From NCBI RefSeq assembly GCF_963921235.1, contig NC_086097.1, positions 9,486,001-9,550,000 on the forward strand: a DNA stretch of 64,000 nucleotides. The letters run 5' to 3'. The position numbers and the translations under genes are program-made. The notes below the pieces were generated by a model. That model was not told the DNA's origin and searched no databases. It was given only the letters and a program-made list of their open reading frames with translations. This document shows, piece by piece, positions 28,590 through 58,059 of the stretch. Source of the stretch: Mobula hypostoma. Lineage: Eukaryota. Within the stretch, counting starts at the first letter, position 1. Each line of letters starts with the position of its first letter.

Positions 28590-28815
28590 GCAACACACAT
28601 CAAAGTTGCTGGTGAACGCAGCAGGCCAAGCAGCATCTATAGGAAGAGGCGCAGTCGACGTTTCAGGCCGAGACCCTTCGTTAGTCCTGACGAAGGGTCT
28701 CGGCCTGAAACGTCGACTGCGCCTCTTCCTATAGATGCTGCTTGGCCTGCTGCGTTCACCAGCAACTTTGATGTGTGTTGCTTGAATTTCCAGCATCTGC
28801 AGAATTCCTGTTGTT
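28590..28815. mobile_element. Penelope-derived 226-bp fold-back mini-element
   Basis: Perfect 94-bp inverted arms (28588-28681 and 28690-28783), 8-nt loop and an unpaired tail. 13-bp TSD TCCCTCAATTTAA at 28577-28589 and 28816-28828. Confidence 0.93.
28683..28718 (+). ncRNA. Minimal type-I hammerhead ribozyme motif
   Basis: AGUC-CUGACGA-A-GGGU(CUCG)GCCU-GAAA-CG-UC-GACU; predicted cleavage after C28714. Confidence 0.8.
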
Positions 28816-29374
28816 TCCCTCAATTTAATCCTAGCAATTAACAATGACCAATTAACTGACCAACCGGTACTTCTTTGGAATGTGGGAGAAAACCAGGGCA
28901 CCTGGAGGAAACCCATACAGTCACAGGGAGAACACACAAGCTCTTTCCAAGTGGCGATGGGAATTGAACCGGGGTTGCTTGTACTGTAAAGCGTTGTACT
29001 AACCACTAAGCTGTCATGCCACTAGAAAATCTAGTATAAGAAGTCCTGAGGAAGGGCCTCGGCCCAAAGTCTCAACTGTTTATTCCTTTCCATAGATGCC
29101 GCCTGACCTGCTGAGTACCTCCAGCATTTTATGTGCGTGTTCCAGCATGTGTAGAATCTGTTTTGTTTATGTGGCTCTTTATGCCTGATTAAAGTAAAGC
29201 TTGTGAATTGCTTCTGTCCTACGTGGAGAGAATATGAATGGTTAATCCAGTCAACGGTGGAAGATGAGAACTTACAGACGTAGAAATCTGAAGTGAGGAA
29301 ACAAATGAAAATGATTCGATTCACATTGTCTCTCAAGTCCACCAACTGCTCTCTAAGTTTGTGCATAAAGTTAA

Positions 29375-29845
29375 AGCAAGAATGATTCTGGGAATGAAGA
29401 GGTTAACCTGTGAGGAGCGTTTGGCAGCTTTGGGTCTGCACTCTTTGGAACTCAGAAGAGTATGGGAGAATCTCATTGAAACCTACCGAATGTTAAAGAC
29501 TAGATAAGGTAGATGTGGAGAGAATGTTTCTTATGGTAGGGGTATCCAGAACTAAAGGATTCAGCCTCAAAATTGAGTTGCGACCTTTTAGAACAGAGGA
29601 AAGGAGGAAATTTTTTAGACATAAAGTAGTGAATCTGTGGAATGTTCTGCCACAGACTGTGTTGGAGGCCAAGTCCATGGTTATATTTAAAGCGGAAATT
29701 GATAGATTCCTGATTGGTCAGGACATCAAAGGATAAGGCAAGAATGCAGGTGTATGGAGTTGAGTAGGATCTGCGATCAGCCATAATGGAATGGCAGAGC
29801 AGACCTGATGGGCTGAATGGCCTAATTCTGCTCCTATGTCTGCTC
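29375..29845 (+). mobile_element. CR1 LINE 3' fragment
   Basis: MERMFLMVGVSRTKGFSLKI..FFRHKVVNLWNVLP. Confidence 0.85.
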
Positions 29846-30369
29846 CTATTCTATCCTACTCTATAGAATATAAAACGATTACAGGACAAGTGCTGTGTCA
29901 AACACCTGATGCAAAAAGAGAGAAAAAAATCATGCAAACAATACAAGTAAACAAGTACCTTCAGAACTTGAGTTTTATAAAATGCATGAAGCCAGTTATC
30001 ACCTCAGCCAGAGTTGGTCACAGCCTCAGTTTTGTGTGGAACTGAGTAATAGTAAAGTTTTTGCCAGAAATGTTAGCACTATATTGATTATGGTGTACAA
30101 TCAATTCTAGTTCAGTTACTGGACTGTTATTCAGAAGCCAGCAGCATTGACATAGGGTCTCACTGCTCAAAAACTAGTCTTTTGCCCCGCCACACCCATG
30201 CCAACTTTTGCCCTTCTATACTAATCCTATTTGTCCATAACAAGAATTCATAAGACCATAAGATCATAAGACATGGGTTTAGAATTAGGCCATTTGCCCC
30301 ATCGAGTCTGCTCTGCCATTCAATCATGGCTGATCCTTTTTTTTCACCTCCCCAATCCCATTTCCCAGC

Positions 30370-31646
30370 AACACTCACAACACGCTGGAGGAACTCAGCA
30401 GGTCAGGCAGCTTCTGTGGAAACGGTCAGTTAACGTTTCCGGCCGGAACCCTTCGTCAGGACTGTAGAGGGAAGGGGCAGAGGCCCTATAAAGAAGGTGG
30501 GGGGAGGGTGGGAAGGAGAAGGCTGGTAGGTTCCAGGTGAAAAACCAGTAAGGGTAAAGATAAAGGGGTGGGGAAAGGGAAGCAGAGAGGTGATAGGCAG
30601 GAAAGGTGAAGGAATAGGGGAAAACACAATGGGTAGTAGAAGGATGTGTAACCATGAGGGAGGTAGAAGGCAGCTGGGGGAGGAGGCAGAGTGAAATAGG
30701 GACAGGGGAAGGGAGGGGGAGGGTGTTACCGGAAGTTGGAGAATTCAATGTTCATACTAAGAGGCTGGAAACTACGTAGACAGTATATCAGTTTAGCCCA
30801 ACCTGAGTTTAGCCTCATCATCGCAGTAGAGGAGGCCATGTATGGACATATCCGAATGGGAATGTGAAGCAGAGTTGAAGTGGGTGGCTACCAGGAGATC
30901 CTGTCTGTTTTGGTGGACGGAGTGGAGGTGCTCGACGAAGCGGTCCCCCAATCTGCGTCAGGTTTCACCGATGTAGAGGAGGCCGCACCGGGAGCACCAG
31001 ATGCAATAGATGACCCCAACAGACTCACAAGTGAAGCGTTGCCTCACCTGGAAGGACTGTTTGGGGCCCTGAATGGTGGCAAGAGAGGAGGTGTAGGGAC
31101 AGGTGTAGCACTTACACTTACAGGGATAAGTGCCGGGTGGGAGATCCATGGGGAGGGACGTGTGGACCAGAGAGTCGCGGAGGGAACAATCCCTGCTGAA
31201 AGCGGAGAGGAGTGGAGAGGGAAAGATGTGCTAGGTACTCCAACTTCCGGTAATTTCCTCCCCTCCCTTCCCTTATCCCAGTTTCACTCTGCTCCCTCCC
31301 CCAGCTGCCTACTACCTCCCTCATGGTTCTGCCTCCTTCTACTACCCATTGTGTTTTCCCCCATTCTTTCTTTACCTTTCCTGCTTATCCCCTCCCTGCT
31401 TCCCCTCCCCCACCCCTTTATCTTTCCCCTTACTGCTTTTTCACCTGGAACCTACCAGCCTTCTCCTTCCCACCCTCCCCCCACCTTCTTTATAGGGCCT
31501 CTGCCCCTTCCCTCTACAGTCCTGACAAAGGGTTCTGGCCCAAAACGTAGACTCATCATTTCCATGGATGCTGCCCGATCTGCTGAGTTCTTCCAGCATG
31601 TTGTAAGTGTTGCTTTGACCCCAGCATCTGCAGAGTATTTTGTGTT
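30370..31646. mobile_element. Neptune-type Penelope-like element, fold-back insertion
   Basis: Inverted arms at about 30370-30741 and 31238-31611. The spacer encodes on the minus strand PGTYPCKCKCYTCP..FTCESVGVIYCIWCSRCGLLYIGET (GIY-YIG). 14-bp TSD TCCCATTTCCCAGC at 30356-30369 and 31647-31660. Confidence 0.92.
30427..30464 (-). ncRNA. Minimal hammerhead ribozyme motif
   Basis: Minus strand CAGUC-CUGACGA-AGGGUUCCGGCCG-GAAA-CG-UU-AACUG. The core is intact but the stems are imperfect. Confidence 0.65.
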
Positions 31647-32387
31647 TCCCATTTCCCAGCCTTTTCCCCATAACTTTTGATGTCATGTCCTATCAAGAAC
31701 CTATCAGGCTCTGCCTTAAATACACCCAACAATCTGACCTCCACAGCTGCACGTGGCAACAAATTCCACAAATTCACCACCCTCTGGCTAAAGAAATTTC
31801 TCTGCATCTCTGTTTTGAATGGACATCCCTGTATCCTGAGGCTGTACCTCCTTGTCCTAGACTCTCCCACCATGGGAAACATCCTTTCCATATCTACTCT
31901 GATTAGGCCTTTCAACATTCGAAAGGTTTCAATGAGATCCCCCCTCATCCTTCTAACTTCCAGCGAGTACAGACCCAGAGCCATCAAACGTTCCTCATCT
32001 GATAACCCTTTCATTCCTAGAATCATCCTTGAGAACTTCCTCTGGACCCTCTCCAGTGCCAGCACATCTCTTCTAAGATGAGGAGCCCAAGGTGAGGCCT
32101 CACCAGTAATTTATAAAGATTCAGCATCACATCCTATGCCTTTTCACCATCTATGCCTTGTCTATATGAGTGTCTGTGTAAATGTCTCTTAAATGTAGTC
32201 TGTGCATCTAATTCCAACATTTCCTCTGGCACTATGTTCAGAACTCAAGCACTCTCTGTGTGAAAAAGCCTTGTCCCTTGTGTCCCTTGTAAACTTCTTC
32301 CTCAAACCTTCAACCTATTTCTTTTTGTTTTTGATCTCCCTACCAAGATCTGGCCATTCTGCTTCTCATAACCTTTATATACTTCTC

Positions 32388-32600
32388 AGGAACACACACA
32401 ACATGCTGGAGGAAATGAATAAAGAGTCAACGTTTCAGGCTGAGACCCTTCATCAGGACTGAGACGGAAGGGGGAATATGCCAGAGTAAAAAGGTAAGGG
32501 AAGGGGAAGGAGGCCAGCTGGAAGGTGATAGGTGAAGCCAGGTTATTGTGGTAGAGGTAAAGGGCTGGAGAGGAGGGTGATCCCCACTACCAACACCCAG
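32388..32600 (-). mobile_element. Penelope 3' fragment with an intact hammerhead core at 32425-32460
   Basis: Minus strand AGUC-CUGAUGA-A-GGGU(CUCA)GCCU-GAAA-CG-UU-GACU, preceded by a pyrimidine-rich UTR. Confidence 0.75.
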
Positions 32601-33129
32601 CCTTAACAACCTTAAGGAACTGTTCTAATTTTCTGTGATTATCTTCAAAATTTCCATTCAAGCATGTGCATGCTCCTTGTCGAAAACTACTGTACTATTC
32701 GTTCTTGAGTATCAACAAACACTTCTACTTTCCAAGTTAAATTCACAGTAAAATCATGCCTTATGATTTCAGAAACTACTTTAGTTTTAATTTTAAATAT
32801 TTGGCATGATTCAAAACTATTTAACCAGCACTTCAAAGAAACATTGAACAGTAATCCTTTGCTGTGCCAGGAAGGGAAATGCAGAAAGTTGTTAACTGCC
32901 AAAATACATTTAAATGAGATGCCCCTACTTTCGGAGGAGGTTGAAGAGAGCTGTACTATGCACAGCAATACTCATGTCCTTCTATAGATGCACAGTGGAG
33001 AGCATCCTGAGAAGCTGCTTCACTAATTGGTATGAAAAATGCTCTGTGGTGGACATGAAAGCTCCACAACGGGTAGTCAAGACTGCCAAACGCATCACCG
33101 CCACCAGTCTACTCGCCATCAAGGACATG

Positions 33130-34010
33130 TAGAACATAGAACATAGAAATCTACAGCCCATTACAGGCCCTTCGGCCCACAATGTTGTGCCAACCATGTA
33201 ACCTACTCTAGAAACTGCCTAGAGTTTCCCTACCCCATAGTCCTCTGTTTTTCTAAGCTCCATGTCTCTTAAAAGACCCTATTGTATCTGCCTCTACCAC
33301 TGTCACTGGCAGTGCATTCTACACACCCACCATCCTCTGTGTCAAAAACTTACCTCTGACATCCCCCTTGTACCTACTTCCAAGCACTTTAAAACTGTGC
33401 CCTCTCGTGCTAGCCATTTCAGCCCTGGGAAAAAGCCTCTGACTATCCACACGGTCAATGGCTCTCATTGTCTTATACACTTCAATCAGGTCATCGCTCA
33501 TTCTCCGTCACTCCAAGGAGAAAAGGCCAAGTTCACTCAACCTATTCTCATAAGGCATGCTCCCCAATCCAGGCAACATCCTTGTAAATCTCCTCTGCAC
33601 CCTTTCTATAGTTACTGCATCCTTCTTATATTGAGGCGATCAGAACTGAGCACAGTACTCCAAGTAGGGTCTGACCAGGGTCCTATATAGTTGCAACATT
33701 ACCTCTCGGCTCCTAAACTCCCACGATTGATGAAGGCCAATGCACCGTATGCCTTCTTAACCACAGAGTCAACCTGCGCAGCAGCTTTGAGTGTCCTATG
33801 GACTCGTACCCCAAGATCCCTCTGATCCTCCACACTGCCAAGAGTCTTACCATTAATTCTGTCATCATATTTGACCTACCAAAATGAACTACCTCACACT
33901 TATCTGGGTTGAATTCCATTTGCCACTTCTCAGCCCAGTTTTGCAGGATATGACCCAGCTACAACAACTCTTTGCCTTCGGTGGGCAAGCCAGTTCTGGG
34001 TCCACAAACC
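33130..34010 (-). mobile_element. CR1 LINE RT/3' fragment with an internal deletion, inserted in a Rex1-like fragment
   Basis: MEFNPDKCEVVHFGRSN and DLIEVYK..FLTQRMVG, with an AGAACATAGAACATAG tail. Flanks 32900-33130 and 34100-34395 are Rex1-like. Confidence 0.88.
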
Positions 34011-35490
34011 AATTTGTCCATTTCCACTAAGAAGGGGCCACGTAGCATCCACACCAAGACTATCAGACTCAATAATAGTTACTTTCCCCAAGCAGTAAGT
34101 TTGATCAGCACCTCTACCCACTAATCCTCCCCTCCAAACCCCCAACCACCACTACTTTATCATTTGCTGTCAGAGTCACCTTACGTACAGATACTCCTGT
34201 ACCTAGCCTCACTTTATGGACATACAACCAATCTATGTATATCAGCTATCTTATGTATTTATATGTATTGTGTGTTTTTACTAATGTGTTCTTTATCTTA
34301 TTGTTTTTTTTGTGCTGCATCAGTTCCGAGTAACAATTATTTTGTTCTCCTTTACATTTGTGTGCTGGAGATGACATTAAACCATCTTGAATCCTGAGAA
34401 CAGAAAGTTAGAGAAGATGAAAAATTCAAGAAATTCAAATCTCCAAACCCAAATCTACTGTGAATATCCTGAACTGATGTGCTAAAGGCATCAATTCTAT
34501 ACGTTTACCTGTATATCTACCGTAGCTTCTAAAATTGCTTTCTGCTTTGTATCTGCTCGTTCTTCAGGATGACTGACAGGTAATTAATCACTGCATGGGC
34601 CCTTTAATAAGATGAGAGAAACAAAGGTGAAATCTGGCAAAAAGTGCATGTAATGGAACAAATTACTGAGCAACAATGTTTCACTGAAGCACTTTCTAAA
34701 ATGTTAACTGTTAACAAGAATTAACACTCTTCTGTGAAGTGCTTGGCTTACAGATTCACAGGATGATTCTTTCATAAATGAGCAGACTCTACATGCATGC
34801 AGATACACAGAAACACACATTTGATTTCTGCTGTCAACATAAAATCATCAGGTATATTCTTGCTGACATATGCCGTGAGAGTTGTTGCTTTCTGGCAGCA
34901 GTACAGTGCAAGACATAAAATTACTGAAAGTTAGGGAAGTAAATAATGCGTAAGAAAAATAGAGGTGTATTCATGGGTTCATGTGACCATTCTCTCTTTC
35001 CATTTCTGAACATTAAACGATATCCCTTGGTCCTTATTCACAGTTCATTGACTCAAACAGTTAGCAGGACTTTCAGTGAGGTAATGGCACCCAGACATTG
35101 TTTAATGAAAGTTCCTCTTGAATATTTATCAAATCCATTACATATTTAATGCAAGTATTGAAACTGGTATTAAACTGTTTACACTTAAGACAATCAGTAG
35201 AAGAGCCATGTCTGGATATTTGAAATGTAAATTTCTGTGTCCTTATGTTTGCTCTCTGAAAATTGCTGTGAATTATGTCAATCATATCTGTATCAGTTTG
35301 TACGGCAAGAGTAGTGACACCAATCTACCTGTTGCAATGTTTGAAGTTACCATGCTTCTGTATGATCACCAGAGAGCACCAGGGTCCTCCAGGCTGAGGC
35401 ACTCCTGCTCTCCTGATTATCAGTTGATTGTTTTCATTGGTTTCTTGTTTTAGTTACAGTGCACCTGTGCCTTGTTTTGCTGGCTTACTT

Positions 35491-35574
35491 CAGGGATTTC
35501 CAACCTTAATTTTTAATGCCATGGAACCCTACCATGAACTGAATGATCTGCAAGTCTCAGGATGGGAACCTCTG
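35491..35574. mobile_element. hAT-type MITE (84 bp)
   Basis: TIRs CAGGGATTTCCAACC and GGATGGGAACCTCTG; diverged 8-bp TSD GCTTACTT/GCCTATTT. A second copy lies at 59311-59390. Confidence 0.7.
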
Positions 35575-36109
35575 GCCTATTTTAAGTTCCCTTGGTTTTG
35601 GTTTTCTTAGCTCAGTCTTGAGCTTACCTACCTTGCGTGGATTCTCATGCCCAGGACTGTGTTCTCTACTAACCAATCCACAAGTAAAGATTCTTTGTTC
35701 AATTCCATCCTTGTCTCTGGTCTCCTCTGCACTTGGTTCCACCTGGTCTAAGTCTCCCCGGTAGTCCATGGGTTCAAGGCAGGGAACTTCACCATAACAA
35801 TCCCGGTTCAAACTCAGCCTGACAGCCACTTTCATTACAGAAAGATAATTTTGTTGCCTGCTGATTTAATTGTTATAAATTTGATGTATATTATTAATTA
35901 TTAAAATATTTTATCACGTAAGAAAGTCTATTATGTCTAAAGTTAATGTTTTCTGAATCTTTGCATTAGGTTTTCAAATGTAAAAAAAAATGAATAGCAC
36001 ATTTTAATAATGAATTGGACTTAAGCAACACTGACAGAGCAACAGAAACCTGCCAACCACTTTTTAGTTCTTTACCATCATGTTTCTACATAGATTTTCT
36101 TCAAGATAT

Positions 36110-39415: not shown

Positions 39416-39754
39416 TGTTCAACCAGGAATGACTGCAAGAAAATGAATCTCAAGGTAGTATATGGTGACATATTTGTACTTTGATAATCAATTTACTTTG
39501 AACTTTGATACATCTAAAGATGTTTAACAAAATATAATATTTGTGTGTCAGTGATAAAATTACATAGACATCTGTAATTTTGCATCCATGATATTATGTC
39601 CACCATACTCTTGATTTTCCCTATAGGGCCAAAAAGATCTTAATAATAATTTTGACCAAAGATAGCTGATAAGATTTTCTTTTCAGATCTAATTTGAGGT
39701 ATTACACATTTAGGTGATTTTGGTCAACTTTACCTAAAAAAGAGAAATGGAAAT

Positions 39755-40040
39755 TTTTTTTCTTAGTGACATACGATGTGGAATAGGCCTTTCTTACTCT
39801 TTGAGCCACGCCCACCCAGCAATCCCCAATTTCATCCTAGCCTAATCAAGGGACAATTTACAATAACTAATTAACTAACGGCTGTTATGTCTTTGGACTA
39901 TGTGAGGAAACTGGAGCACCAGGAGGAAACCCCCATGGTCATGGGGAGAACGTACAAACTCCTTACAGACTGTAGCAGGAATTGAACCGTGGCCGCCTGT
40001 GCTGTAAGGCATTGTGCTAACCACAATGCCACTGTGCCAT
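39755..40040 (-). mobile_element. HE1/V-SINE-like SINE
   Basis: GGGACAATTTACAATAACTAATTAAC..TCTTTGGACTATG and B-box GGAATTGAACC. Confidence 0.78.
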
Positions 40041-40212
40041 CCATTACTGTGGAAATCAGCTACAACTTAAAACAGTCAGACAAGGCATTGACCACATTTG
40101 GAGTACTGTGAGCAGTTTTGGATCCCATATCTCAGGAAAGAGGTGATGATTTCAGAGACAGTTCAGAGGAAGTTTAAAAGAATGATTCTAGAGATGAAAA
40201 AGTTAATGTATG

Positions 40213-40704
40213 TCAAGCACCTCCGCTCTGTCTGCCACAACAGACAGGATCTCCCGGTAACCACCCACTTCAACTCTGCTTCCCACTCCCATTCAGATAT
40301 GTCCATACGTGGCCTCCTCTACTGCCATGATGAGGCTAAACTCAGGTTGGAGGAGCAACACGTCATATACCATCTAGGTAGTCTCCAGCCCCTTGGTATG
40401 AACATAGAATTCTCCAACTTCTGGTAATTCCCTCCTCCTCCCTTCCTCTATCCCTATGTCACTCTGCCCCCTCCCCCAGATGCCTATCACCTCCCTGCTT
40501 CCCCTCCCCCACCCCTTTATCTTTCCCCTTACTGGTTTTTCACCTGAAACCCACCAGCCTTCTCCTTCCCACCCTCCCCCGACCTTCTTTATAGGGCCTC
40601 TGCCCCTTCCCTCTTCAGTCCTGACGAAGGGTTCTGACCCGAAACGTTGACTCATCGTTTCCACGGATGCTGCCTGACCTGCTGAGTTCCTCCAGTGTGT
40701 TGTG
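40213..40704 (+). mobile_element. Penelope-like 3' fragment (GIY-YIG C-terminus and pLTR)
   Basis: HLRSV..PVTTHFNSASHSHSDMSI..LEEQHVIYHLGSLQPLGMNIEF; 8-bp TSD AATGTATG at 40205-40212 and 40705-40712. Confidence 0.9.
40617..40652 (+). ncRNA. Minimal hammerhead ribozyme motif
   Basis: AGUC-CUGACGA-A-GGGU(UCUG)ACCC-GAAA-CG-UU-GACU; stems I and II are fully Watson-Crick paired. Confidence 0.8.
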
Positions 40705-44694: not shown

Positions 44695-46255
44695 GTACTT
44701 CATACTTTATTGTCGCCAAACAATTGATACTAGAACATACAATCATCACAGCGATATTTGATTCTGCGCTTTGCGCTCCTTGGAGTACAAATCAATAGTA
44801 AATATTAAAAATTTAAATTATAAATCATAAACAGAAAATAGAAAAAAGGAAAGTAAGGTAGTGCAAAAGACCGAGAAGCAGGTCCGGATATTTGGAGGGT
44901 ACGGCCCAGATCCGGGTCAGGATCTGTTCAGCAGTCTTATCACAGTTGGAAAGAAGCTGTTCCCAAATCTGGCCGTACGAATCTTCAAGCTCCTGAGCCT
45001 TCTCCCGGAGGGAAAAGGGACGAAAAGTGTGTTGGCTGGGTGGGTTGTGTCCTTGATTATCCTGGCAGCACTGCTCCGACAGCGTGCGGTGTAAAGTGAG
45101 TCCAAGGACGGAAGATTGGTTTGTGTGATGTGCTGCGCCGTGTTCACGATCTTCTGCAGCTTCTTTCGGTCTTGGACAGGACAACTTCCATACCAGGTTG
45201 TGATGCACCCTAGAAGAACGCTTTCTACGGTACATCTATAAAAATTAGTGTGGGTTTTAGGGGACAGGCCAAATTTCTTTAGCTTTCTCAGGAAGTAAAG
45301 GTGCTGGTGGGCCTTCTTGGCAGTGGAGTCTGCTTGGTTGGACCAAGTCAGGTCATTTCTGGTATTGACCCCGAGGAACTTAAAGCTTTTGACCTGTTCC
45401 ACTTACACACCACCAATGTAAATTGGGTCGCGTGATCCACTACTCCTTCTGAAGTCAACAACCAATTCCTTCATCTTGCTGACGTTGAGGGATAGGTTAT
45501 TGTCTTCGCACCAGGCCACCAGGTTCTTAATTTCCTCTCTGTACTCAAACTCATCATTACCCGAGATACGGCCTACAATTGTTGTGTCATCAGCAAACTT
45601 ATATATTGAGTTTGATGGAAACTTGGCTACACAATCATGGGTGTACAGTGAGTACAGCAGGGGGCTGAGTACACAGCCTTGTGGGGCATTGGTGCTCAGA
45701 GTGATTGTAGAGGAGAGCTTGTCCCCTATTTTTACAGCCTGGGTCCTGTCTGTGAGGAAGTTGAAGATCCAGCTGCAGACCTGAGTGCTAAGGCCCAGGT
45801 TCCAGAGTTTAGGAATCAGTTTATTTGGAATGATTGTATTAAAGGCAGAGCTGTAGTCAATGAAAAGGAGCCTTACATATGCGTCTTTATTCTCCAGGTG
45901 TTCTAAGGAGGAATGTAGGGCCACAGAGATGGCATCTGCCATTGACCTGTTGCTCCGGTAGGCGATTTGCAAAGCGTCAAAGTAGACCGGTAGGCTGTGG
46001 TTGATGTGTGCCATAACCAATCGCTCGAAGCACTTCATAGCAATTGGTGTCAGAGCCACAGGTCGATAGTCATTCAGGCATGCCACCTTGCTCTTCTTCG
46101 GCACTGGGATTATCGTTGCCTTCTTAAAACACGAGGGGATCTTAGACTGAAGCAAGGAGCAGTGAAGATGTCAGCAAACACTCCAGCTAGCTTGCTTGCA
46201 CAGGCCCGGAGAACCCGTCCTGGGACGCCATCTGGGCCCATCGCCTTCCTTGGAT
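44695..46255 (-). mobile_element. Young 5'-truncated Rex1/Babar-like LINE; RT frame broken by one stop
   Basis: ORFs 45403..46155 and 44917..45402 are contiguous and in frame: [61 protein letters not shown]. 3' end GACAATAAAGTATG. Confidence 0.93.
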
Positions 46256-47399: not shown

Positions 47400-48078
47400 G
47401 TAACCCTAATTGTTTACTGCTGTTCTTGGACTACAGTTCAGCATTCAACACGATAACTCCCCCCAAGCTCGACAAGAAGCTGAGAGACCTTGGCATGCAC
47501 CCCACCATGTGCAGCTGGGTCCTTAACTTCCTGTTGGATCGCTGGCACCTGGTAAGGATGGGAACCCTCACCTCAGCCTCTCTGACCCTTAACACAGGAG
47601 CCCGCCAGGGCTGTGTACCTAGTACCCTCCTCTACTCCCTATACACCCACAACTGTGTTGCCTCGCATAGCTCCAGATCAAAATTGCAGATGACACGATA
47701 TTGATAGGCCCTATTTCCAACAATGATGAGGTAGCCTATGGCGGAGAAGTCAATGCCCTGACACAGTGGTGCCAAGAAAACAACTTCTCCCTCAATGCCG
47801 AAAAAATGAAGAAGTTAGTCGTGGATTACAGGAGGAAGGGAGACAGGCTAGCTCTTATTGACGTCAATGGGACTATAGTTGAGAGGGTGAGTAGTTTCAA
47901 GTTTCTTGGTGTACAGATCTCAGAGGATCTCACCTAGGCTGTACATACTGACTGTGTTGTGAAAAAAAAGCACACAGCACTTCTTTCACCTCAGACGGCT
48001 AAGGAAGCTTAGCATAAATCCCCAAATCCTCAGGACTTTCTACAGGGGAACTATGGACAGCATCCTGACTGTCTGTGT
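47400..48078 (+). mobile_element. Rex1/Babar-like RT fragment
   Basis: [30 protein letters not shown] and WCQENNFSLNA..FKFLGVQISEDL. Confidence 0.85.
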
Positions 48079-48079
48079 T

Positions 48080-48255
48080 ACCAACAAGAGAAAATCTGCA
48101 GATGCTGGAAATCCGAGCAACACACACAAAATGCTGGAGGAACTCAGCAGGCCAGGCAGCCTCTATGGAAAAAAGTACAGTCGATGTTTTGAGCCAAAGC
48201 CCTTTGGCAGGACTTCAAAGAAAACCTTTGAAGAGTTTCGGCCCAAAAAGGTTTT
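48080..48255 (-). mobile_element. Degraded Penelope 3' terminus
   Basis: TCTGCAGATGCTGG...CACACACAAAATGCTGGAGGAACTCAGCAGG, with a decayed hammerhead and a short inverted copy. Confidence 0.7.
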
Positions 48256-48309
48256 TACTTCCTTATGTTGTGAGATGAATATCAGAAATAAAATTCTAAT
48301 TCTAATTCA

Positions 48310-50590
48310 AATACTGACTTTGAGAAGATACCAATTGTTGACGTCACTATTGGGACAATGTACACCCTGTTCATGTTCCATAGTCTTTCAACTTCCTCCT
48401 TCTATTCAGCATATTTCTGTTGTTTTTCACTTCTTAATTTCTGTATGTTATGTGTATTTGGAATGGTATTACAGGAACAATTGTTACATGCTCAAGGAGA
48501 TGTATTTTCTTTGTGAGAATGATGTAATGGTCTTTTGGAGATCACCTGATGTGACTTTCCTGCCGATGTGAGGTCACGTGATGACATGTGCCCCGTGACT
48601 ATATAAGGGTTGACCCAGGTGATGCAGTAGGTTTTTGGAGTTTGTAGATTTCCAGGTAGAACATGTTGTATCTCCATTTCTGTTGCGTGTTTGTTTTTGG
48701 TGACGCAGTTTCATTTTTAAAATGGTTGTGGATTAAGTTGCAAGATACCATTATTATTTGGACTGGAAATTTTTGCTAGATGTGTTGATTTACTCAATTC
48801 CAATATTCGAAGGGAGAGTGAAGAATTCATCGAAGTGCAGGATCGAAGGATCGAGAGAAGTCGACATCATTTGGCAGTTTAATAAAGGATCGACCTTATT
48901 GAGTCTTCGTTGGAGTAGCAACCTGCATCGAGATAACTCTTGCCAAAAGAGAAAGGAGTTCATGCAAAGGTGTGTTCTCTATCTCTAAAGGAATTTAAGG
49001 TTAGTTGATTTAAACTGTTTATTTTTGGCATCATGAGTCCTGTGGACAGAACCAGCAGTAAAGTTGCGTCTGTGAAGAAATCCTTCTCCAGAGAAGTCTC
49101 TCCCAATTGAATGTGTAAATCTGTTGAACTTTCGAAGTTATCGCTTTAAGAACTATATCTGACTGTATCGCTTTAAAAACCAGAGCCGAGTGGCGAGTTG
49201 GTGAACGGCTGCATGTCTATTAACTTCTGGTTAAAGTTTTCGTTTGTTTTTTTTTCCTTATCGTTTATCGGTGCTTAATAAATGTTTGGTTATTTTTATA
49301 TAACCTGTCTCGATTGATATTCATTGTTGATGGTTACGTAACACTATTAAGTAAAATCCTGCAATATTATACCCGAATGTCTGTTATGGATTGCCCTATC
49401 CGTAATAATGGATCAGTTGTATTATAGTTTGTGGGACTCTGATTCTAAAGCTGGATCAGGCTTGTATTTGCAGTAAGGTATGGTTTATTTTATGAGTTTG
49501 TATTTTTAAGTAAGATTTTGGTGAATGAAGCTTGCCACCTGATTGTGCCTGTGTAAGTAATCAGATTGAGTTAAACTGCTGCAGGATCTTGTAATATGTT
49601 GGATTGTTTCTAAATTCTCTTGGCATTTTCTGCATTTATCATCTTGAATTTGTTGGTCTTTTATTTTGTATTTTTGATTATTTTTTGTATTAACTACCTG
49701 GTCCTGTATTGCCACAATGAACCCCACTGTTTCTGGAAAGAGGTCTACAACTCTGAGCCAGGTGTTCAGCACTTCCTTGTCGACATCTACTCTGCCAAGA
49801 TAGTACAGAAGTCTTCCATGGAGGTCGTGCTGTTCCGTTGGTGATAATTCCTTCATTTTAACGGGCTGTGTTTTCATTTAGCTTTCATGGTGTGTACTTC
49901 TTATCAGAATTGCATATGTCTGCGTGAATCCTGTCTTTGTTGATAATATATCCTCAGTAACTGACTGTTGTGTAATTTCTTTAATGTTTGCTATTCCTCT
50001 TCCACCTTCTGTCCTAGGTAGCGTTAATCTAAGTGCATTTGAGCGTATATAGTGTTTTCTAAAGTTTGTCATTTCAGTTCCTACTTTTATTTGTAAATTT
50101 TCTAGATCGGTTTTGGACCAAGATAGGATGCCAAAATAATACGTTAATATGGGTATAGTGAAGGTGTTTATTGCCTTTGTTATATTTTTACAATTGAGCT
50201 CTGTTTGGCAGATCTTCTTAAGCCTTGAAGTAAATCTTGTTTGAAGTTTTCTCTTTATCATACTATGATCTATTTTCTTTGCTTGTTTATATCTTAGATA
50301 CTTACATGTTTCATATTCATACATTGATTGTATTGTATCCTGCTGCTCTGTTTGTATTCTACTAGCTCTATTGCACCTTTCTTTATGTTTAATGTTCTGC
50401 AGTTATCTAGTCTAAAGTTCATGTTTATATCTTTCGAAAACAGTTCTACTATTTGAATTAATTGCTTTAGCTTTACTGATGAAGGAGCATGTAATTTCAA
50501 ATTGTCCATGTATAGAAGGTGTGTCAAGGTATAATTCGTTTGTTTCTGATTTGATACCCTATTTTCATCGGATTCAGTAAATTAGAGTAA
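48310..50590 (-). mobile_element. R4-clade non-LTR retrotransposon remnant, split by a solo LTR
   Basis: THLLYMDNLKL (YMDD box), KAINTFTIPILTY, RLTLPRTEGGRG, AIQDQVV..CRKCQENLETIQHITRSC..YLHRHNQVA. The REL C-terminus (IPNTHN..RLWNMNRVYIVPIV) lies at 48310-48480. Confidence 0.85.
48482..49343 (+). mobile_element. Solo LTR (862 bp)
   Basis: Termini TGTTAC...GTAACA; flanks CAAT/CTAT; TATATAA at 48600-48606 and AATAAA at 49277-49282. Homologous to 24766-25633. Confidence 0.9.
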
Positions 50591-51540
50591 ATTATTATTT
50601 TTTTCTTTCTTTTTGCATTTGCACAGTTCGTTGTCTTTTTCACACTGGTGCATTTGAGCATAAAATATAGAAATCATCTCTTCACTCCATGCTGACCAAC
50701 AGTTATCTATCCATGGTAATTCCATTTATCGGCATAACCTATTTTTCCTTGGTGGTTTAGGTGTTTCTTAAATGTTATGAGAATATCAGTCTCCAACAGG
50801 TGCCTTCTCAGGTTGTGTATTCCAAATTGGTGTCATTCTCTGGGACAAAAAGTTTTATTTCTGATTTCCTGATAGCACTTAAACTTTACCTTAAATCTAT
50901 GTTCTCTGATCTTAGACTCCTTTGCAATGGGGAAAAAGTTCACAAGGCTTATCCACAATAAGCCTTATAACTTGTCTGGAAGAATTCTTACTTCCTCTTA
51001 AAGATTCCTCTCTTCTTTATCTTTAATGCAGAGTACGTGGTAGAGCACAGAAGCTGAGCCTTTGGCCCAGCATCTCCATACTGACCATCAAATCCTTTCT
51101 ATAACACTTACTGTGAACAAGCACTTGGTTCACAGCTGACTATGCATTGGCAATTAAAGTGCTCATTTCAGATGCTTGTTGAATTTTATTTTTATTTTTA
51201 TTTATTCATTGAGATACAGCATGGAACAGGCCCGTCTGGCCCTTTGAGCTTTATCAGCCAGCAACACCTGATTTAACTCTAGCCTAATTGAAGTTCAAAG
51301 TTCAAAGTACATTTATTATCAAAGCATGTATATATTATAAGTCCTTGAGATTTTCTCTTAACAGGCAAAGCAAAGAAACCCAAAAGAACACATAAAAAAG
51401 GAGGACTGTCATATGCCCAGTGTGCAGAGAAAAAAACAATCATGCAGATAATAAACACAAGATTATAGCATTCAGAACTGAAGTCCACAGAGAAAGTCCT
51501 GTCCACAGGCCCTTAGTTCAGTGCAGAGCAGAGCAGCAAG

Positions 51541-52400
51541 TTGAACCGGAATGGGAATGGAAAGTGGAATTAAAATGGATGGCCACTGGGAGATCCCACT
51601 TCTTCTGGTGGATGGAGCGTAGGTGCTCAGTGAAACGGTCTCCCAATCTACGTTGGGTCTCACCGATATACAGGAGTCCACACCAGACTCCAGGCACAGT
51701 ATATGACCCAACAGACTCACAGGCGAAGTGTCGTTTCACCTGAAAGTACTGTTTGGGGCCCTGAATGATAGTGAGAGAGGAGACGTAGGGGCAGGTGTAG
51801 CACTTGTTCCACTTCATTCACCAGAAGCAGGATCTCCTATTTTAATTCCACTTCCCATTCTTATTCTGATGTGTCAATTCATAGCCTCCTCTACTGTCAC
51901 AGTGAGGCCACACGCAGGTGGGAGAAACAACACCATATATCCTATCTGGGTAGCCTCCAACCTGATGGCGTGAACATCAATTTCTTGAACTTTTGGTAAT
52001 AGCCATCCCCCACCACCACCCCATCCTCTCCTTCACCAGTCCCCATCCCCTTTTCCCTCTCTCAGCTTATCTCCGTACCTGCCCATCACCTCCCTCTGGT
52101 GTGCCTCTCCCTTTTCTTTCTTCCATGGCCTTCTAGCTCAACCAATAACACTCCCCCTTCTCCAGCCCTGTATCTCTTTCACCAATCAACTTCACTGCTA
52201 TTTCCTCCATCCTTCCCCCTCCCAGTTTCATCTATCACCTTGTGTTTCTCTCTCCCCTACCCTAACTTCTAAATCTGCTACTCATCCTTCTTCTTCTCCA
52301 GTCCTGCTGAAGGGTCTTGGCCCGAAACGTTGACTGTACTTTTTTCCATATATGCTTCCTGGCCCGCTGAGTTCCTCCAGCATTTTGTGTGTGTTGTCCA
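51541..52400. mobile_element. Penelope-like element with an inverted junction (minus 51541-51815, plus 51815-52400)
   Basis: Minus strand KCYTCP..CGLLYIGETQRRLGDRFTEHLRS..HFNS. The plus part ends in a mutated hammerhead (CTGCTGA..CCCGAAACGTTGACTG). Nested within V-SINE and Rex1 pieces. Confidence 0.85.
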
Positions 52401-52699
52401 AACATCAGGCTCTTTTGCTTCAATATGCTGTGGCATCTGGATCCAACAATTTATAATGGTCAAACAACCTACAACTGTGGGAGGAAACCGGAACACCCAG
52501 AGGAAACCCTTGCGATCATGGGGAGAATATATAAACTCCTAACAGACTGTGGTAGGTACCGAACCCCGGGTTGCTGGCACTGTAAGGCATTGTGCTAACC
52601 ATTGCACTACTATCTGCCCATTTCTTCTATCACCTTCTGCAACCAACTTCAGAGTGGAATAAAACAGACCTCAGATCTCGTATAAACTTCTTACACCTC

Positions 52700-53320
52700 A
52701 CCTTAAAAACCCTCACTTTATTTACAGACGCTCCCGTGCCTAGCATCATTTTATGGGCATATAATCAATCTACATATATAAGCAAATTTTGTATTTATAT
52801 TTATTGTGTTTAATTTATTATAGTTGTGTTCTTTATCTTATTGTGTTTTTTTGTGTTGCATCGTATCTGGAGTAACTATTATTTCATTTTATTTTACACT
52901 TATGAATTGGAAATCACATTAATCAATCCTGAGGAGCGTTGCCTCAAAAAGGCGATGTCCATCACTAAGAACCCCTTCACGCTGGACATGCTCTCTTCTC
53001 ATTTCTATCGTCAGGAAGGAGGTACAGAAGCCTGAAGGCACACACTCAGTGGGAATAGCTTCTTCCCTCTGCCATCCGATTTCTGAATGGACATTGAACC
53101 CATGAACATGACCTCACTACTTCTTTTACTTCTGTTGTTTGCACTTCTTATATCATTTAACCATGTTATATAGATGTATACTATAATGCACAGTTCTTTT
53201 TTGCTCTATTGTTATGTATTGCATTGTACTGCTGCTGCAAAGTTAACAAATTTCATGACATATGCCGGTGATATTAAACCTGTTTTTGATTTTGATTCTA
53301 ATTCTGAATCTTGAATCTCA
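52700..53320 (+). mobile_element. Rex1/Babar-like 3' fragments
   Basis: RCLKKAMSITKNP..GRRYRSL-like, with tail TTTCATGACATATGCCGGTGATATTAAACCTG. Confidence 0.7.
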
Positions 53321-53659
53321 GCCGAAGCTCTTAGATGGCACTGCTGTTTGCAAAAATTCCTTACCATCAGTCCCATCTAGGCTCTCATAATTTTGTATAT
53401 CTCTATCATGTCTGTTCTTAGGCTCCTCTGCTCCAGGGAAAGGAAAGCAGACTGTCCAGTTTATCCTCAAGCAACATCCAGGTGATCCTGGCACTCTTTC
53501 TGTTGTAATCATGCCCACCTTGATCAATAATTAAAATATAAAGTTAAAATAATACATGATGTTATAAATAAAAGTAAAAAAAATGCAAGGCATACTGGAC
53601 AGTTCAGGTGGCATCCAATTTCAGGTCAGTATCCTTTCATGAGAATTAGGAGCAGTCAG

Positions 53660-54230
53660 AAGTGAAACAATAGCCAACGCTTCAGGCTGAGACACTTCAC
53701 ATGGTCTCAGCACAAAACTTCAGCTGTTTATTCATTTCCACCGATACTGCCTGACCTGCTGAGTTCCTCCAGAATTTTGTATGTGTTACTCTAGATTTCC
53801 AGCATTTCAGAGATGAAACAAGCTCTCACAACAGTGAAAAGATGAGAATGGAAAGGAAAGGTCTGACTTAGACTGGAGGACAGGATTGATTAAATGACAA
53901 AACAGATAATGTTGCTCGTGCTAATCTCTCTGTCCTTATCCTCCTACACTAGTTCAATCAATTTTGAATTAAGCTTGAAAAATAGTACTTCCAACTTTGG
54001 CTGTAACATTTCAAACTGCTGCTTTCAAAACTGAATTTACCAATTTTAGACACAAGAAGTTTTGTAGATGATAGAAATCCGGAGTAGCACACGTGAAAAG
54101 CTGGAGGAACGCAGCAAGTGAAGCTGCATCTATGGAAAGGAATGAACAGGCGACTATTCAGGCCGAGACCCTTTGTCAGGCTAGTCCAGACGAAGGATCT
54201 CAGCCCAAAATGTCCATTGTTTATTCCTTA
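53660..54230. mobile_element. Two degraded Penelope fold-back mini-elements (about 53660-53810 and 54050-54230)
   Basis: Decayed GGCTGAGAC..GGTCTCAGC palindromes and CCTGACCTGCTGAGTTCCTCCAG; also CCCTTTGTCAGGCTAGTCCAGACGAAGGATCTCAGCCC. Confidence 0.65.
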
Positions 54231-54289
54231 CCAATTATAAGTCAGGTGCAGCTGCTAATCGACAACGCATGCTGTGTAAGGCAAGTGCC

Positions 54290-54497
54290 TACATCACCAG
54301 GCAAGTTCAAACATGGAAACCCTCGGGATAGCGAGGAAGGTCGGCCAAAGAACCCTTATGATGTGACCTTGAAGCTGACACCAAGAAAATGGGGTCCACC
54401 TGGGGACAACTTGAAAGCTTAGCCAGGACAGGGGACTCTGGTGAACTGCTGTCAGCAGCCTTTGCCCCAGTAGGGGTGATGAGCTCAAGTAAGTACA
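54290..54497 (+). mobile_element. RTE-clade LINE 3' end (related copy at about 59520-59660)
   Basis: Approximate translation GRPKN..DLEADTKKMGSTWGQLE..QDRGLW..LCPSRG, with tail CAAGTAAGTA. Confidence 0.65.
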
Positions 54498-54959
54498 ACT
54501 GGTGACAGCAATCTTCCCAGCAAGGTGGAGATTGGACAATACTTGCTTAAGTCTGTCCCGGAGCCTGCACTGCTGTAAATTATAAGTTGTTTTTACGTGA
54601 GTAAATTCGATGGAGTATCCTTCACTCACTGATGCATTTCTCTCAGGAGATCCTCTGCTTCAAGCAATGATTTGCCATCCCTGTTACATCTCCTCTTGAT
54701 GTCTTTCTACCCTATCACCATCTCTTTTCGGCTTTCTCTCTCAATCCTTTCATCAACTCTGCATTCACCCAATCAAAATTCAAAGTAGATCAGCATATAC
54801 TACCCTGAGATTCATTTTCTTGTGGGCATTCACAGTAAATCCAAAAACCACAATAGAGTCAGCTGAAGACTACACTCAACAGGACACTCGAACAACTAAT
54901 GTGCAAAAGATAACAAACAGTGCAAATACAAAATAAAAAAAAAAGCAATAAATATCAAG

Positions 54960-55195
54960 AACAGTGGTGAATATGTGGAATTCGTTGTCACAGGAGGCTG
55001 CGGAGGCTAAGTCTTTAATTATATTTAAGGCAGAGGTTGATAGATTCTTGATTGGTCAGGCAATGAAGGGATACGGGGGAAAGGCAGGAGATTGGGGCCA
55101 AGAGGAGAAATGGATCAGCTGTGATGAAATGGTGGAGTAGACTTGATGGGCCAAATGGCCTGATTCTGCTCCTATATCTTATGGTCCTACAGTCT
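54960..55195 (+). mobile_element. CR1 3' end inserted in a Rex1-like 3' fragment
   Basis: VVNMWNSLSQEAAEAKSLIIFKAEVDRFL; tail CTCCTATATCTTATGG. Confidence 0.8.
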
Positions 55196-55829
55196 AATAT
55201 GAGATGAAGAGTCCTTGTAAGAGATGCCAGAGGTTGTGGGATCAGTTCAGTGAAGTTGAGTGAAGTTATTCTCTCTGGTTCAAGACCCTAATGGTTTGGG
55301 GGTGATAAACTTCCTAAACCTGGTTGGATCCTGAGGTTCCTCCAGCACTTTCCTGATGACAGCTGTGAGAAGACAGCATGGCCTGGATAGTGGGAGTCCT
55401 TGACAATGGATGCTCATTTCCTCGCCTGTCTGCTTTCTCTACTTTGAAAGCAAACTCCTGACTTTTCTCAGATCTGATGGAAAGTCATCGACCTGAGACA
55501 TCAGCTCTTTCTCTCTCTTCACGTACAGTGTGACCTGTTCAGTAGTCCTGGTATTTTCTGGTTTAAGTTTTGCACCCAGTTCAGTGTGGAGTGGGAGCCA
55601 CGAACATAACCATGTGTATTAGAAGTTAGACTAGGCTATTCAGCTACTTGAGACTGCACTGCCACATAACGTTCATTGTCTACTGATGGCTGTCTCAAAT
55701 CCATATTCCTAACCTGTTCCTACACAAAACATTACTATCCAAAGGCTCTGTGTCCACCACTGTTTAGGGAAGGAGTTCCAAAATTTCTTCATCTTCTAAT
55801 AAAATGTTTTAATAAGTTTTATAATTGTC

Positions 55830-56210
55830 AATTATCATCATTACATGTCATGCCGTAAGATATGGTTGAATATGGACTTTCTATGACCATGATTGTTCTT
55901 GGCAATTTTTCCTGCAGAAGTGGTTTGCCATTGCCTTCTCCTGGGTAGTGTCTTTACAAGACGGGTGATCCCATTTATTATCAATACTCTTCAGAGATTG
56001 TCTGCCTGGAATCAATGGTCGCATAGCCAGGACTTGTGATATGTACCAGCTGCTCATACGACCACGTGTCGCCTGCTCTCATGGCTTCACGTGACCCTGA
56101 TCGGGGGGACAAAGCAGGTGCTACACCTTACCCAAGGGTGACCTGCCGGCTAGCAGAGGGAAGGAGCACCTTACACCTCCTTCAGTAGAGACGTATCTCC
56201 ACCCTACCAA
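55830..56210 (-). mobile_element. SINE-like element with an RTE/BovB-type tail
   Basis: GAAGTGGTTTGCCATTGCCTTCT motif, typical of RTE-derived tails. Confidence 0.5.
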
Positions 56211-56776
56211 CCGTTTGGCAATCAGTTACTTTTACACATTGATTTCTAATTTTGAATTCTCCCACAAGAGGGAATATACTTTATCATCTACCTTTTAAAC
56301 CCTTCAGAATCTTAAATGTGCTAATCAAGTTTCCATATACTCTTCCAAACTTCCAGCAGGTATCAGCATCATTTGTCCAACTTTTGCTAAAAGAACAATA
56401 CAGATATTAAGTCTATTAAGCCTTCCTTGAACTGCTTCTAACAGAGTTACATCCTTTCTTAAATAGGGAGATTAATAGTACGTACAGCATTCCAGATGTG
56501 CCTTCATCGGTGCCATTATCCTTTGTGTTTAATATATGAATGAAAATATTCTGTTGGCTTCCCTAAATATTTGCACTACTTGCGTACCAATCTTTTGCAA
56601 ATTGTGCAGAGAACATTTGGATCTTTCTACTTTTCAGAATTCTTCACTCAATCAATATTTATGTATGCTTGTTTTTCTAAAATAACATTTCTGCCCAAAA
56701 TGGACACATTCACGCAACACACATCAAAGTTGCTGGTGAATGCAGCAGGCCAGGCAGCATCTATAGGAAGAGGTGC

Positions 56777-56812
56777 AGTCGACGTTTCAGGCCGAGACCC
56801 TTCGTCAGGACT
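56777..56812 (-). ncRNA. Minimal hammerhead ribozyme motif
   Basis: Minus strand AGUC-CUGACGA-A-GGGU(CUCG)GCCU-GAAA-CG-UC-GACU. Confidence 0.8.
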
Positions 56813-57107
56813 AACTGAAGGAAGAGTGAGTAAGGGATTTGAAAGCTGGAGGGGGAGGGGGAGATGCAAAATGATAGGAGAAGACAGGAGGGGGAGGGAT
56901 AGAGCCGAGAGCTGGACAGGTGATAGGCAAAAGGGGATACGAGAGGATCATGGGACAGGAGGTCCGGGAAGAAAGACGGGGGGGGGGGGTGACCCAGAGG
57001 ATGGGCAAGAGGTATATTCAGAGGGACAGAGGGAGAAAAAGGAGAGTGAGAGAAAGAATGTGTGCATAAAAATGAGTAACAGATGGGGTACGAGGGGGAG
57101 GTGGGGC

Positions 57108-57530
57108 CTAGCGGAAGTTAGAGAAGTCAATGTTCATGCCATCAGGTTGGAGGCTACCCAGACAGAATATAAGGTGTTGTTCCTCCAACCTGAGTGTGGC
57201 TTCATCTTTACAGTAGAGGAGGCCGTGGATAGACATGTCAGAATGGGAATGGGATGTGGAATTAAAATGTGTGGCCACTGGGTGATCCTGCTTTCTCTGG
57301 CGGACAGAGCGTAGATGTTCAGCAAAGCGGTCTCCCAGTCTGCATCGGGTCTCACCAATATATAAAAGGCCACATCGGGAGCACCGGACGCAGTATATCA
57401 CCCCAGTCGACTCACAGGTGAAGTGATGCCTCACCTGGAAGGACTGTTTGGGGCCCTGAATGGTGGTGAGGGAGGAAGTGTAAGGGCATGTGTAGCACTT
57501 GTTCCGCTTACACGGATAAGTGCCAGGAGG
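57108..57530 (-). pseudogene. Penelope GIY-YIG endonuclease domain with upstream Cys-rich linker (5'-truncated; RT absent)
   Basis: PGTYPCKRNKCYTCP...FTCESTGVIYCVRCSRCGLLYIGETRCRLGDRFAEH..HFNSTSH..LEEQHLI..LQPDGMN. Confidence 0.9.
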
Positions 57531-58023
57531 GAGATCAGTGGGGAGGGATGGGGGGGACGAATGGACAAGGGAGTTGTGTAGAGAGCGATCCAGGCGGAAT
57601 GCAGAGAAAGGCCTCCTCTACTGTAAAGATGAAGGCACACTCAGGTTGGAGGAACAACACCTTATATTCCGTCTGGGTAGCCTCCAACCTGATGGCATGA
57701 ACATTGACTTCTCTAACTTCCGCTAGGCCCCACCTCCCCCTCGTACCCCATCTGTTACTCATTTTTATGCACACATTCTTTCTCTCACTCTCCTTTTTCT
57801 CCCTCTGTCCCTCTGAATATACCTCTTGCCCATCCTCTGGGTCAACCCCCCCCACCTTGTCTTTCTCCCTAGGCCTCCTGTCCCATGATCCTCTCGTATC
57901 CCCTTTTGCCTATCACCTGTCCAGCTCTCGGCTCTATCCCTCCCCCTCCTGTCTTCTCCTATCATTTTGCATCTCCCCCTCCCCCTCCAGCTTTCAAATC
58001 CCTTACTCACTCTTCCTTCAGTT

Positions 58024-58059
58024 AGTCCTGACGAAGGGTCTCGGCCTGAAACGTCGACT
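58024..58059 (+). ncRNA. Minimal hammerhead ribozyme motif
   Basis: Identical to 28683-28718. Confidence 0.8.

Follow-up and report, generated by a model that had tools for sequence, protein, structure and literature searches.

A 64,000-nucleotide stretch of the Mobula hypostoma genome (contig NC_086097.1, positions 9,486,001 to 9,550,000 of the forward strand, here called the window) carries repeated copies of a short motif resembling the hammerhead ribozyme, and the locus raises the question of what these copies are and whether they do anything where they stand. An initial annotation made from the letters of the window described six intact cores with structure-preserving variation, and suggested that any transcript crossing the region would carry cores able to pair and self-cleave. 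We conclude, with a probability of about 0.85, that the cores are the minimal hammerhead module in the pseudo-long terminal repeat (pseudo-LTR) of a very abundant, recently active, endonuclease-bearing (EN+) Penelope-like element (PLE) family, and that the window copies are truncated and dead. This reading is carried by the identity of the motif, its position in the element, its abundance and its conservation relative to its flanks. The motifs belong to the minimal type I hammerheads (min-HHR) that have been described in PLEs; PLE hammerheads, their missing stem III, the dimer model and the fold-back pairs are all in the literature already. The observation is thus correct but ordinary, in that it concerns the standard ribozyme module of a very abundant PLE, present mostly as broken copies.

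To locate the motif, the annotated consensus was written as CTGAYGANGGGTNNNNRCCYGAAACGTY and searched with up to two mismatches allowed, with 100 dinucleotide-preserving shuffles as the control. The pattern matched the window 10 times and the shuffles 0 times. Five matches hold an exact core, at 28687-28714(+), 32429-32456(-), 40621-40648(+), 56781-56808(-) and 58028-58055(+), and the AGTC...GACT helix I flanks given in the annotation are seen at every one of them. A motif is therefore present at all six places where an intact core had been reported, and five of the six are intact. The sixth, with its core at 30432-30459(-), is broken: G at position 11.1 creates a G-G mismatch at the 10.1-11.1 pair (core numbering as in PMC4209133), and the sequence reads GTT-AACT across the cut site, so that G1.1 has become A, is mispaired with C2.1, and the first helix I pair is lost. 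The decayed copies reported near 9055, 29045, 31520 and 52300 are real, with core mutations readable in each. Absent from the annotation were the partner arms at 9026(-) and 28657(-); further decayed copies lie near 27500(+), 48180(-), 53726(+), 54147(-), 61751(+) and 62254(-)/62263(+), and when the window is searched with the downstream flank only, about 19 copies of this 3' segment appear.

The type I core (C3 U4 G5 A6 N7 G8 A9, then G12 A13 A14, the A15.1-U16.1 pair, and H17 not G) is found exactly in five window copies, together with a helix I of 4-5 bp, a helix II of 4 bp and a helix III without closure in the monomer. Helix II reads GGGU/ACCC in the 40621 subfamily as against GGGU/GCCU, the one informative difference, which settles the register and leaves an A unpaired behind A9; this unpaired A, between A9 and 10.1, is present in 20 of 20 copies, and only that register pairs GGGU with ACCC or GCCY. 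Among 22 distinct rows there are 10 with a G-C and 9 with a G-U pair at 10.1-11.1, the other 3 being unpaired there, with C11.1 sitting in a CpG, and the 15.2-16.2 pair is C-G in 14, the rest being mostly CpG decay products. There is no loop 3. Stem III is a single A15.1-U16.1 pair around a two-nucleotide CG, and ACGU is self-complementary; as the annotation held, this palindrome cannot close in a monomer and is formable only between two copies, which together would supply a 4-bp ACGU/ACGU helix III.

Three genomic copies with long open frames were compared to place the motif within an element. Two of them, L019 and L020, are full length: in each, a pair of directly repeated motifs, spaced 3,515-3,518 bp, flanks an open reading frame (ORF) of 1043 amino acids in the same orientation, which encodes reverse transcriptase (RT) and a GIY-YIG endonuclease; the third, L021, consists of one unit that lacks the upstream repeat. 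The flanking repeats of L020 (374 bp) are 96.5% identical. In the full-length layout the cut site lies about 57 nt 5' of the ORF start and about 103 nt 5' of the copies' 3' end, and the motif stands about 300 nt past the stop codon. The min-HHR identity proposed in the annotation is thus borne out by the core, the missing loop 3 and the placement in the pseudo-LTR of full-length copies.

The window itself retains parts of this ORF. Its N-terminus begins at 58113, 58 nt past the cut site at 58055, and each of the motifs at 30432(-), 40621(+), 52304(+), 56781(-) and 58028(+) has an ORF remnant upstream on its own strand, whereas none was detected beside the motif at 32425..32460(-). The fragment at 57108-57617(-) is 97% identical to the full-length genomic copies, and the GIY...YIG, R, H, E and N residues are readable in the window endonuclease fragment. 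The linker CKRNKCYTC in the window protein fragment (P0001) fits CX2-5CxxC, which PMC8557442 (cited here from excerpts, as are PMC11167929 and PMC6765202) assigns to Neptune and Nematis, not to Penelope/Poseidon; judged from the linker motif alone, and as a linker type rather than a clade placement, the family would be of the Neptune/Nematis kind. The ORF has 746 relatives at E<=1e-10, with precomputed RVT_1 domains and in many also GIY-YIG, and the best named relative is a shark protein with 72% identity. The same excerpts give a partial tandem (pseudo-LTR), frequent 5' truncation and an adjoining inverted truncated copy as hallmarks of EN+ PLEs, and all three are found in this family. By that account, the ORF and repeat features are the defining features of an endonuclease-bearing PLE.

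An exact core occurs 81,463 times in the 3.48-Gb genome, and 0 times when the pattern is read backwards as a control; with the 0 matches in 100 shuffles, this rules out chance occurrence of the motif. The density is about one exact core per 43 kb, which makes five in 64 kb a mild local excess only. The endonuclease-fragment protein gave 206,282 first-look candidates in the genome, of which 150 were scored; all 150 were 96-100% identical, and three lay within open frames of 1035-1043 amino acids. Because of the uninterrupted 1043-amino-acid ORFs and because scored copies are 96-98% identical to the window fragment, the family looks, from its sequence, recently or currently active. The window copies themselves are dead insertions, 5'-truncated 3' ends of at least four subfamilies, several of them head to head with an inverted partner (Table 1), an arrangement that frequently results from PLE integration, and no function is expected of the motifs here.

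The annotation had proposed beforehand to judge the motif by whether its core is kept above its flanks across genomic copies. We took copies from the window plus 200 kb of arbitrary genome and picked them by the downstream flank alone (39 copies, 20 of which span the motif and the upstream flank), such that neither motif nor upstream flank entered the selection. The majority fraction over those 20 copies was 0.882 in the 36 motif columns, compared with 0.634 in the 43 columns of the upstream flank (Mann-Whitney p=1e-8) and 0.677 at +5..+19 (p=6e-4); it reached 0.955 over the 11 core nucleotides, and the whole core was kept in 10 of the 20. Contigs from four organisms aligned to 57620-58160 showed, among the places listed, one variable place within 58024-58059 (58047, position 11.1), and their unaligned ends accumulate immediately before 58024 and immediately after 58060, so subfamilies diverge exactly at the motif borders. 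The core is therefore kept above its flanks, and its borders coincide with subfamily divergence. On the reading that we prefer, the motif would be retained because element lineages that keep multiplying keep it, and inserted copies would decay neutrally, fastest at the motif's five CpG sites.

Those five sites (C7-G8, the last two loop bases, C11.1-G12, C15.2-G16.2 and C17-G1.1) account for most of the variation. Minority letters in the motif are of the CpG-decay type in 49 of 85 cases, and the majority fraction is 0.948 at non-CpG positions versus 0.71 at CpG positions. The annotation had presented the variation as structure-preserving. However, all of the variants cited for it (CUCG/CUCA/CUUG, GUC/GUU, CUGACGA/CUGAUGA and GCCC/GCCU) fall at CpG dinucleotides and are expected deamination products, and shuffle controls were not convincingly exceeded; the claim is not supported. 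An alignment of 23 rows has 90.9% of its cells paired, as against at most 42% in slid registers. The U at 11.1 of the G-U pair probably arose by CpG decay and became fixed in the main subfamily. The variation in the motif is mostly uninformative on structure, and it serves as a caution that apparent structure-preserving variation can be CpG decay.

Table 1. Hammerhead motifs and associated features of the PLE family; positions are those of the window, except in the last two rows, which give positions within the genomic copies
Feature	Coordinates	Strand	Details
Older fold-back pair, both cores mutated	9022..9087		Junction type as at 28685
Copy in the older pair	9056	+	CTAACGA and GAACCGTC
Short fold-back insertion, right arm holding the 28683 motif	~28583-28696 and 28675-28816		Two arms
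Left fold-back arm, chimeric non-working core	28653..28688	-	CTAACGA; partner junction inside CUGANGA box
Intact min-HHR	28683..28718	+	Helix I AGTC/GACT; core 28687-28714; predicted cut after 28714
Decayed copy	29041..29080	+	G12 to A plus other changes
Defective min-HHR, second subfamily	30428..30463	-	G at 11.1; G1.1 to A
Endonuclease-coding remnant upstream of the 30428 motif	31239-30729	-	Same strand as motif
Decayed copy	31515..31554	+	G8 to A, G12 to A
Intact min-HHR, further subfamily	32425..32460	-	CUGAUGA, loop CUCA, GUU
Endonuclease remnant upstream of the 40617 motif	40209-40421	+	Same strand as motif
Intact min-HHR	40617..40652	+	Helix II GGGU/ACCC, loop UCUG
Decayed copy	48179..48214	-	A6 to C, G8 to A, G12 to A
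Inverted partner remnant near the 52300 motif	51545-51814	-	
Endonuclease remnant upstream of the 52300 motif	51835-51993	+	Same strand as motif
Decayed min-HHR	52300..52335	+	Core 52304; A6 to C
Two 5'-truncated PLE 3' ends, head to head	56708..58128		Arms 56708-57224 and 57610-58128
Intact min-HHR	56777..56812	-	~295 nt 3' of the GIY-YIG remnant's stop codon
C-terminal ORF fragment	57108..57617	-	CX4CxxC linker and GIY-YIG endonuclease, cysteines within core
Intact min-HHR	58024..58059	+	Followed by first 22 ORF codons at 58113
Full-length copy L019	motifs 1924 and 5442		ORF 2009-5137
Full-length copy L020	motifs 1911 and 5426		ORF 1996-5124; repeats 1668-2041 and 5190-5556

The close pairs in the window (9026/9056, 28657/28687 and 56781/58028) lie on opposite strands, head to head. 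The largest of them has arms at 56708-57224 and 57610-58128 with 97.7% identity across 519 bp, and its minus-strand copy spans about 57611 to 56708. In the fold-backs 9026/9056 and 28657/28687 the junction falls inside the CUGANGA box, and for this reason the left-arm cores read CTAACGA or carry other changes. The exact junction CCTTCRTYAGTCCTRAYGAAGG (window 9044-9065 and 28675-28696) recurs 771 times in the genome, 370 forward and 401 reverse, with 0 in the control. Just 5' of the core the native sequence, CCTTCAGTTAGTC-CTGACGAAGG, itself comes close to a palindrome, which would give a snap-back site and explain the recurrence of CCTTCRTYAGTCCTRAYGAAGG. Fold-back junctions appear to cluster in the motif, with 6 of the 8 sampled partner arms beginning between -31 and +4, although these counts come from a small sample with ascertainment bias. 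The only strong Rfam match in the window, mir-3926-like at 28648-28723, was rejected as a microRNA, as it is the palindrome of two such head-to-head copies.

These junctions bear on whether the motif is kept for a reason other than cleavage, be it as a structured RNA or cDNA bound by protein, as a pause or template-switch site for RT, or as a passenger that parasitises the PLE, with the core kept by descent or structure. The clustering of junctions and the recurrence of CCTTCRTYAGTCCTRAYGAAGG speak for such a role, as do the near-palindromic native sequence (CCTTCAGTTAG-TC-CTGACGAAGG) and the palindrome GTC-GAC at the cut site. Insertion in vitro was reported to be unaffected by ribozyme mutants (excerpts of PMC11167929), and the excerpts of PMC8557442 raise the parasite idea and note that PLE clades without hammerheads proliferate well. 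Yet the 11 catalytic nucleotides are the best kept of all, where a purely structural role would tolerate changes, cleavage has been demonstrated for other PLE hammerheads (PMC4209133, PMC11167929), and the bias in the junction counts limits what they can carry. We consider a role other than cleavage unlikely. Its sharper form, which we regard as quite improbable, is that the hammerhead segment matters mainly as a near-palindromic structure where the copying enzyme stalls or switches template and not as a cutter; it draws on the same native fold-back at the CUGANGA box, the cut-site palindrome, the junctions within the 36-nt motif and the 771 recurrences. If it were true, more than 80,000 intact cores together with intact 1043-amino-acid ORFs would make the genome an exceptionally good natural record, which could be used to separate cleavage from template-switch footprints of PLE hammerheads.

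The position of the copies also bears on the suggestion that the cores of the window act jointly, any long transcript through 28-58 kb on either strand self-cleaving by pairing of its cores. Three intact plus-strand cores and two intact minus-strand cores are present and, ACGU being self-complementary, any two copies are pairable in principle. However, the intact plus-strand cores (28687, 40621 and 58028) are spaced 12 and 17 kb apart and the intact minus-strand cores (32429 and 56781) 24 kb apart, the sole bond between two copies would be 4 bp, inactive monomer folds are favoured, and published dimers cleave poorly in vitro (PMC4209133). The close pairs are on opposite strands, and therefore one transcript has one sense and one antisense copy and would fold into a long hairpin instead. 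Because of the wide same-strand spacing and the antisense close pairs, self-cleavage of any crossing transcript is unsupported, and we judge joint action of these cores to be highly improbable.

A further possibility is that the copies are non-LTR retrozymes, that is, non-autonomous tandem repeats making circular RNAs, and not fragments of autonomous PLEs. According to bioRxiv 10.64898/2026.07.22.740005, type I hammerheads are found in retrozymes, which have a relationship to PLE pseudo-LTRs. The window copies at 28683 and 32425 have no adjoining coding remnant. Against this, there is no head-to-tail tandem of motif units and no direct motif pair within 1 kb in the window, the close pairs being inverted; four of the six annotated cores are preceded, on their own strand, by endonuclease remnants; and the short copies, with 93-98% identity, are 3' ends from the autonomous family in fold-back arrangement. 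We hold this to be the least probable of the accounts weighed here.

We return to the PLE module and to what it would do in a living element. In PMC4209133 the min-HHR showed no activity as a monomer and low activity as a dimer in vitro. The excerpts of PMC11167929 report that cleavage of a lizard PLE requires the element's protein, that no RNA-seq reads end at the cut site, and that ribozyme mutants still insert in vitro; in those of PMC8557442, PLE hammerheads are discussed as possible parasites and some well-proliferating PLE clades lack them. By analogy with these systems, a second copy, either in the other pseudo-LTR or as a tandem neighbour on the same transcript, would build helix III from the self-complementary ACGU, the element's protein would probably be needed to assist catalysis, and the cut would process the element RNA. 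We infer this published mechanism, with dimeric cleavage and a role in RNA processing, as the best supported one for the family.

Several results weigh against the PLE hammerhead reading. The annotation had proposed a check with hammerhead models, and Rfam covariance models gave no hammerhead match in the window, whether at the gathering score, at E<=10 on the whole window or on the 91-nt segment 58000-58090; a missing match is expected because the motif has no helix III, and it leaves no model-based confirmation. Folding by nearest-neighbour energies pairs the GACG of the CUGACGA box of the 36-mer with CGUC at the cut site, at -10.0 versus -6.0 kcal/mol for helices I and II alone, and when 120 nt are folded, it is the CU tract upstream that pairs with CUGACGAAGGG; the active fold is thus not favoured, in agreement with the published lack of monomer activity. 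The ORF scores below the Pfam cut-offs, with 22.9-23.9 bits for RVT_1 (cut-off 29.6) and 17.8-22.5 bits for GIY-YIG (cut-off 22.6), and no sequence match to it was found among solved structures at E<=0.01. Changes on both sides of a pair occur in 2 of 10 pairs (3 cells), and shuffles attain the observed values in 43 of 500 and 33 of 500 cases. Lastly, copy 5' ends form no spike at the predicted cut site. This test required non-element letters at -11..-8 and an intact +5..+23, and gave 259 matches. A hand tally of the 100 listed leaves 77 classifiable rows once 9 full copies with point changes and 14 internal indel variants are set aside. Apparent starts in those 77 rows, from +5 down to -6, number 14, 6, 5, 4, 6, 5, 3, 14, 6, 5, 6 and 3, with 11 of 77 at +1 or 0, no excess over the adjacent positions. 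The negative is a weak one and the filter biased, the test being weakened by the GTC-GAC palindrome and by the filter's preference for the partner-arm CAGG.

Some further observations concern the fold and the junctions. The rod-like inactive fold of the monomer, which concerns 58024-58059 and every copy with C at N7, is favoured over helices I and II alone by 4 kcal/mol. The dimer output of RNAcofold is an extended duplex at -28.3 kcal/mol, a kissing-type hammerhead dimer being beyond its scoring. Among the 100 of 259 matches listed, a second recurrent junction, in which the reverse complement of GAAGGGTCTCGGCCC is joined to +5 (GTACC), occurs at six loci (e.g. C1:70790040, C2:116039640 and C5:39870843). 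Four of the same 100 listed copies (C1:3621180, C1:67127792, C1:79416751 and C18:67997536) have a 12-nt internal deletion removing GAAACGTCGACT, which comprises the 3' half of the core, the cut site and helix I; the deletion lies between two CTG repeats.

Other observations concern the neighbourhood of the motif. Between the ribozyme and the ORF start, the block AGATGCTGCCTGGCCTGCTGNGTTC (window 58075-58098, +20..+43 after the cut site in all copies) is kept at 0.869 across subfamilies, as well as the hammerhead, a score inflated by the choice of copies through that same flank, and the 15 nt between hammerhead and block are variable (0.677). The block holds a GCUG...CAGC hairpin and may be where the protein binds or reverse transcription starts. 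In every subfamily helix I is adjoined by a pyrimidine tract that ends in YAG (window 57990-58025; L020 1668-1906), and PMC4209133 reports an intron end at the corresponding spot in Drosophila virilis Penelope; the idea of a splice acceptor was dropped, as the whole upstream repeat is CT-rich and no convincing donor was seen. Elsewhere in the window, other RT fragments, with clear RVT_1 scores of up to 98 bits, and ALKBH8_N-like stretches lie at 14517-15626(-), 16458-16961(+), 45403-46170(-) and 60725-61219(+), and also at 2738-3142(+), 44917-45402(-) and 47963-48571(+); these are remains of retrotransposons of the long interspersed nuclear element (LINE) type, unrelated to the PLE family. A weak twister-P1 match at 59394-59448(+), with 23.7 bits against a gathering score of 67.2 and E=1.3, is most likely chance.

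What the family offers is scale: it has no fewer than 81,463 intact cores, there are intact ORFs among its members, and its copies are 96-98% identical. Its truncated and fold-back copies could be mined for any in vivo footprint of PLE hammerheads. Its closest known counterparts are the metazoan PLEs of PMC4209133 (Cervera and De la Pena 2014), which have a min-HHR in both flanking repeats, without loop 3, with a palindromic 15.2-16.2, an extra base between 9 and 10.1 and a G10.1-C11.1 pair, and whose copies are mostly single, on truncated elements, with pairs on opposite strands 100-700 bp apart. The family described here is like them in its type I core, missing loop 3, palindromic 15.2-16.2, unpaired base between A9 and 10.1 and short helix I; in its position in both flanking repeats of an element with RT and GIY-YIG; and in its mostly single copies on truncated elements, its close opposite-strand pairs and its several consensus families in one genome. 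It differs in that 11.1, which pairs with G10.1 as C or U, is U about as often as C, and from the Schistosoma families, with a helix II of 7-8 bp, in having a helix II of 4 bp plus a tetraloop. The 81,463 exact cores are about ten times the counts given there for Xenopus (~9,000) and the coelacanth (~4,000), which were obtained by different search methods.

Going by the excerpts of PMC11167929, Poseidon of Anolis carolinensis (PAc) is another EN+ PLE of a vertebrate whose pseudo-LTR holds a hammerhead near the ORF start; its copies, too, have their 3' end inside the repeat unit and include 5'-truncated ones. The PAc ORF starts inside the ribozyme, in stem II, whereas the ORF here starts about 57 nt past the cut site; and unlike Penelope/Poseidon, as described in the excerpts of PMC8557442, the present ORF has the CX2-5CxxC linker, a Neptune/Nematis feature. 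Newt satellite 2, the Schistosoma repeats resembling short interspersed nuclear elements (SINEs) and non-LTR retrozymes share with it a type I hammerhead whose helix III is too weak alone and which is thought to act as a dimer (excerpts of PMC6765202; PMC4209133). Theirs, however, stand in short tandem repeats with two copies adjacent on one RNA, whereas the copies here are dispersed or inverted, and two direct copies are found only in full-length elements, 3.5 kb apart.

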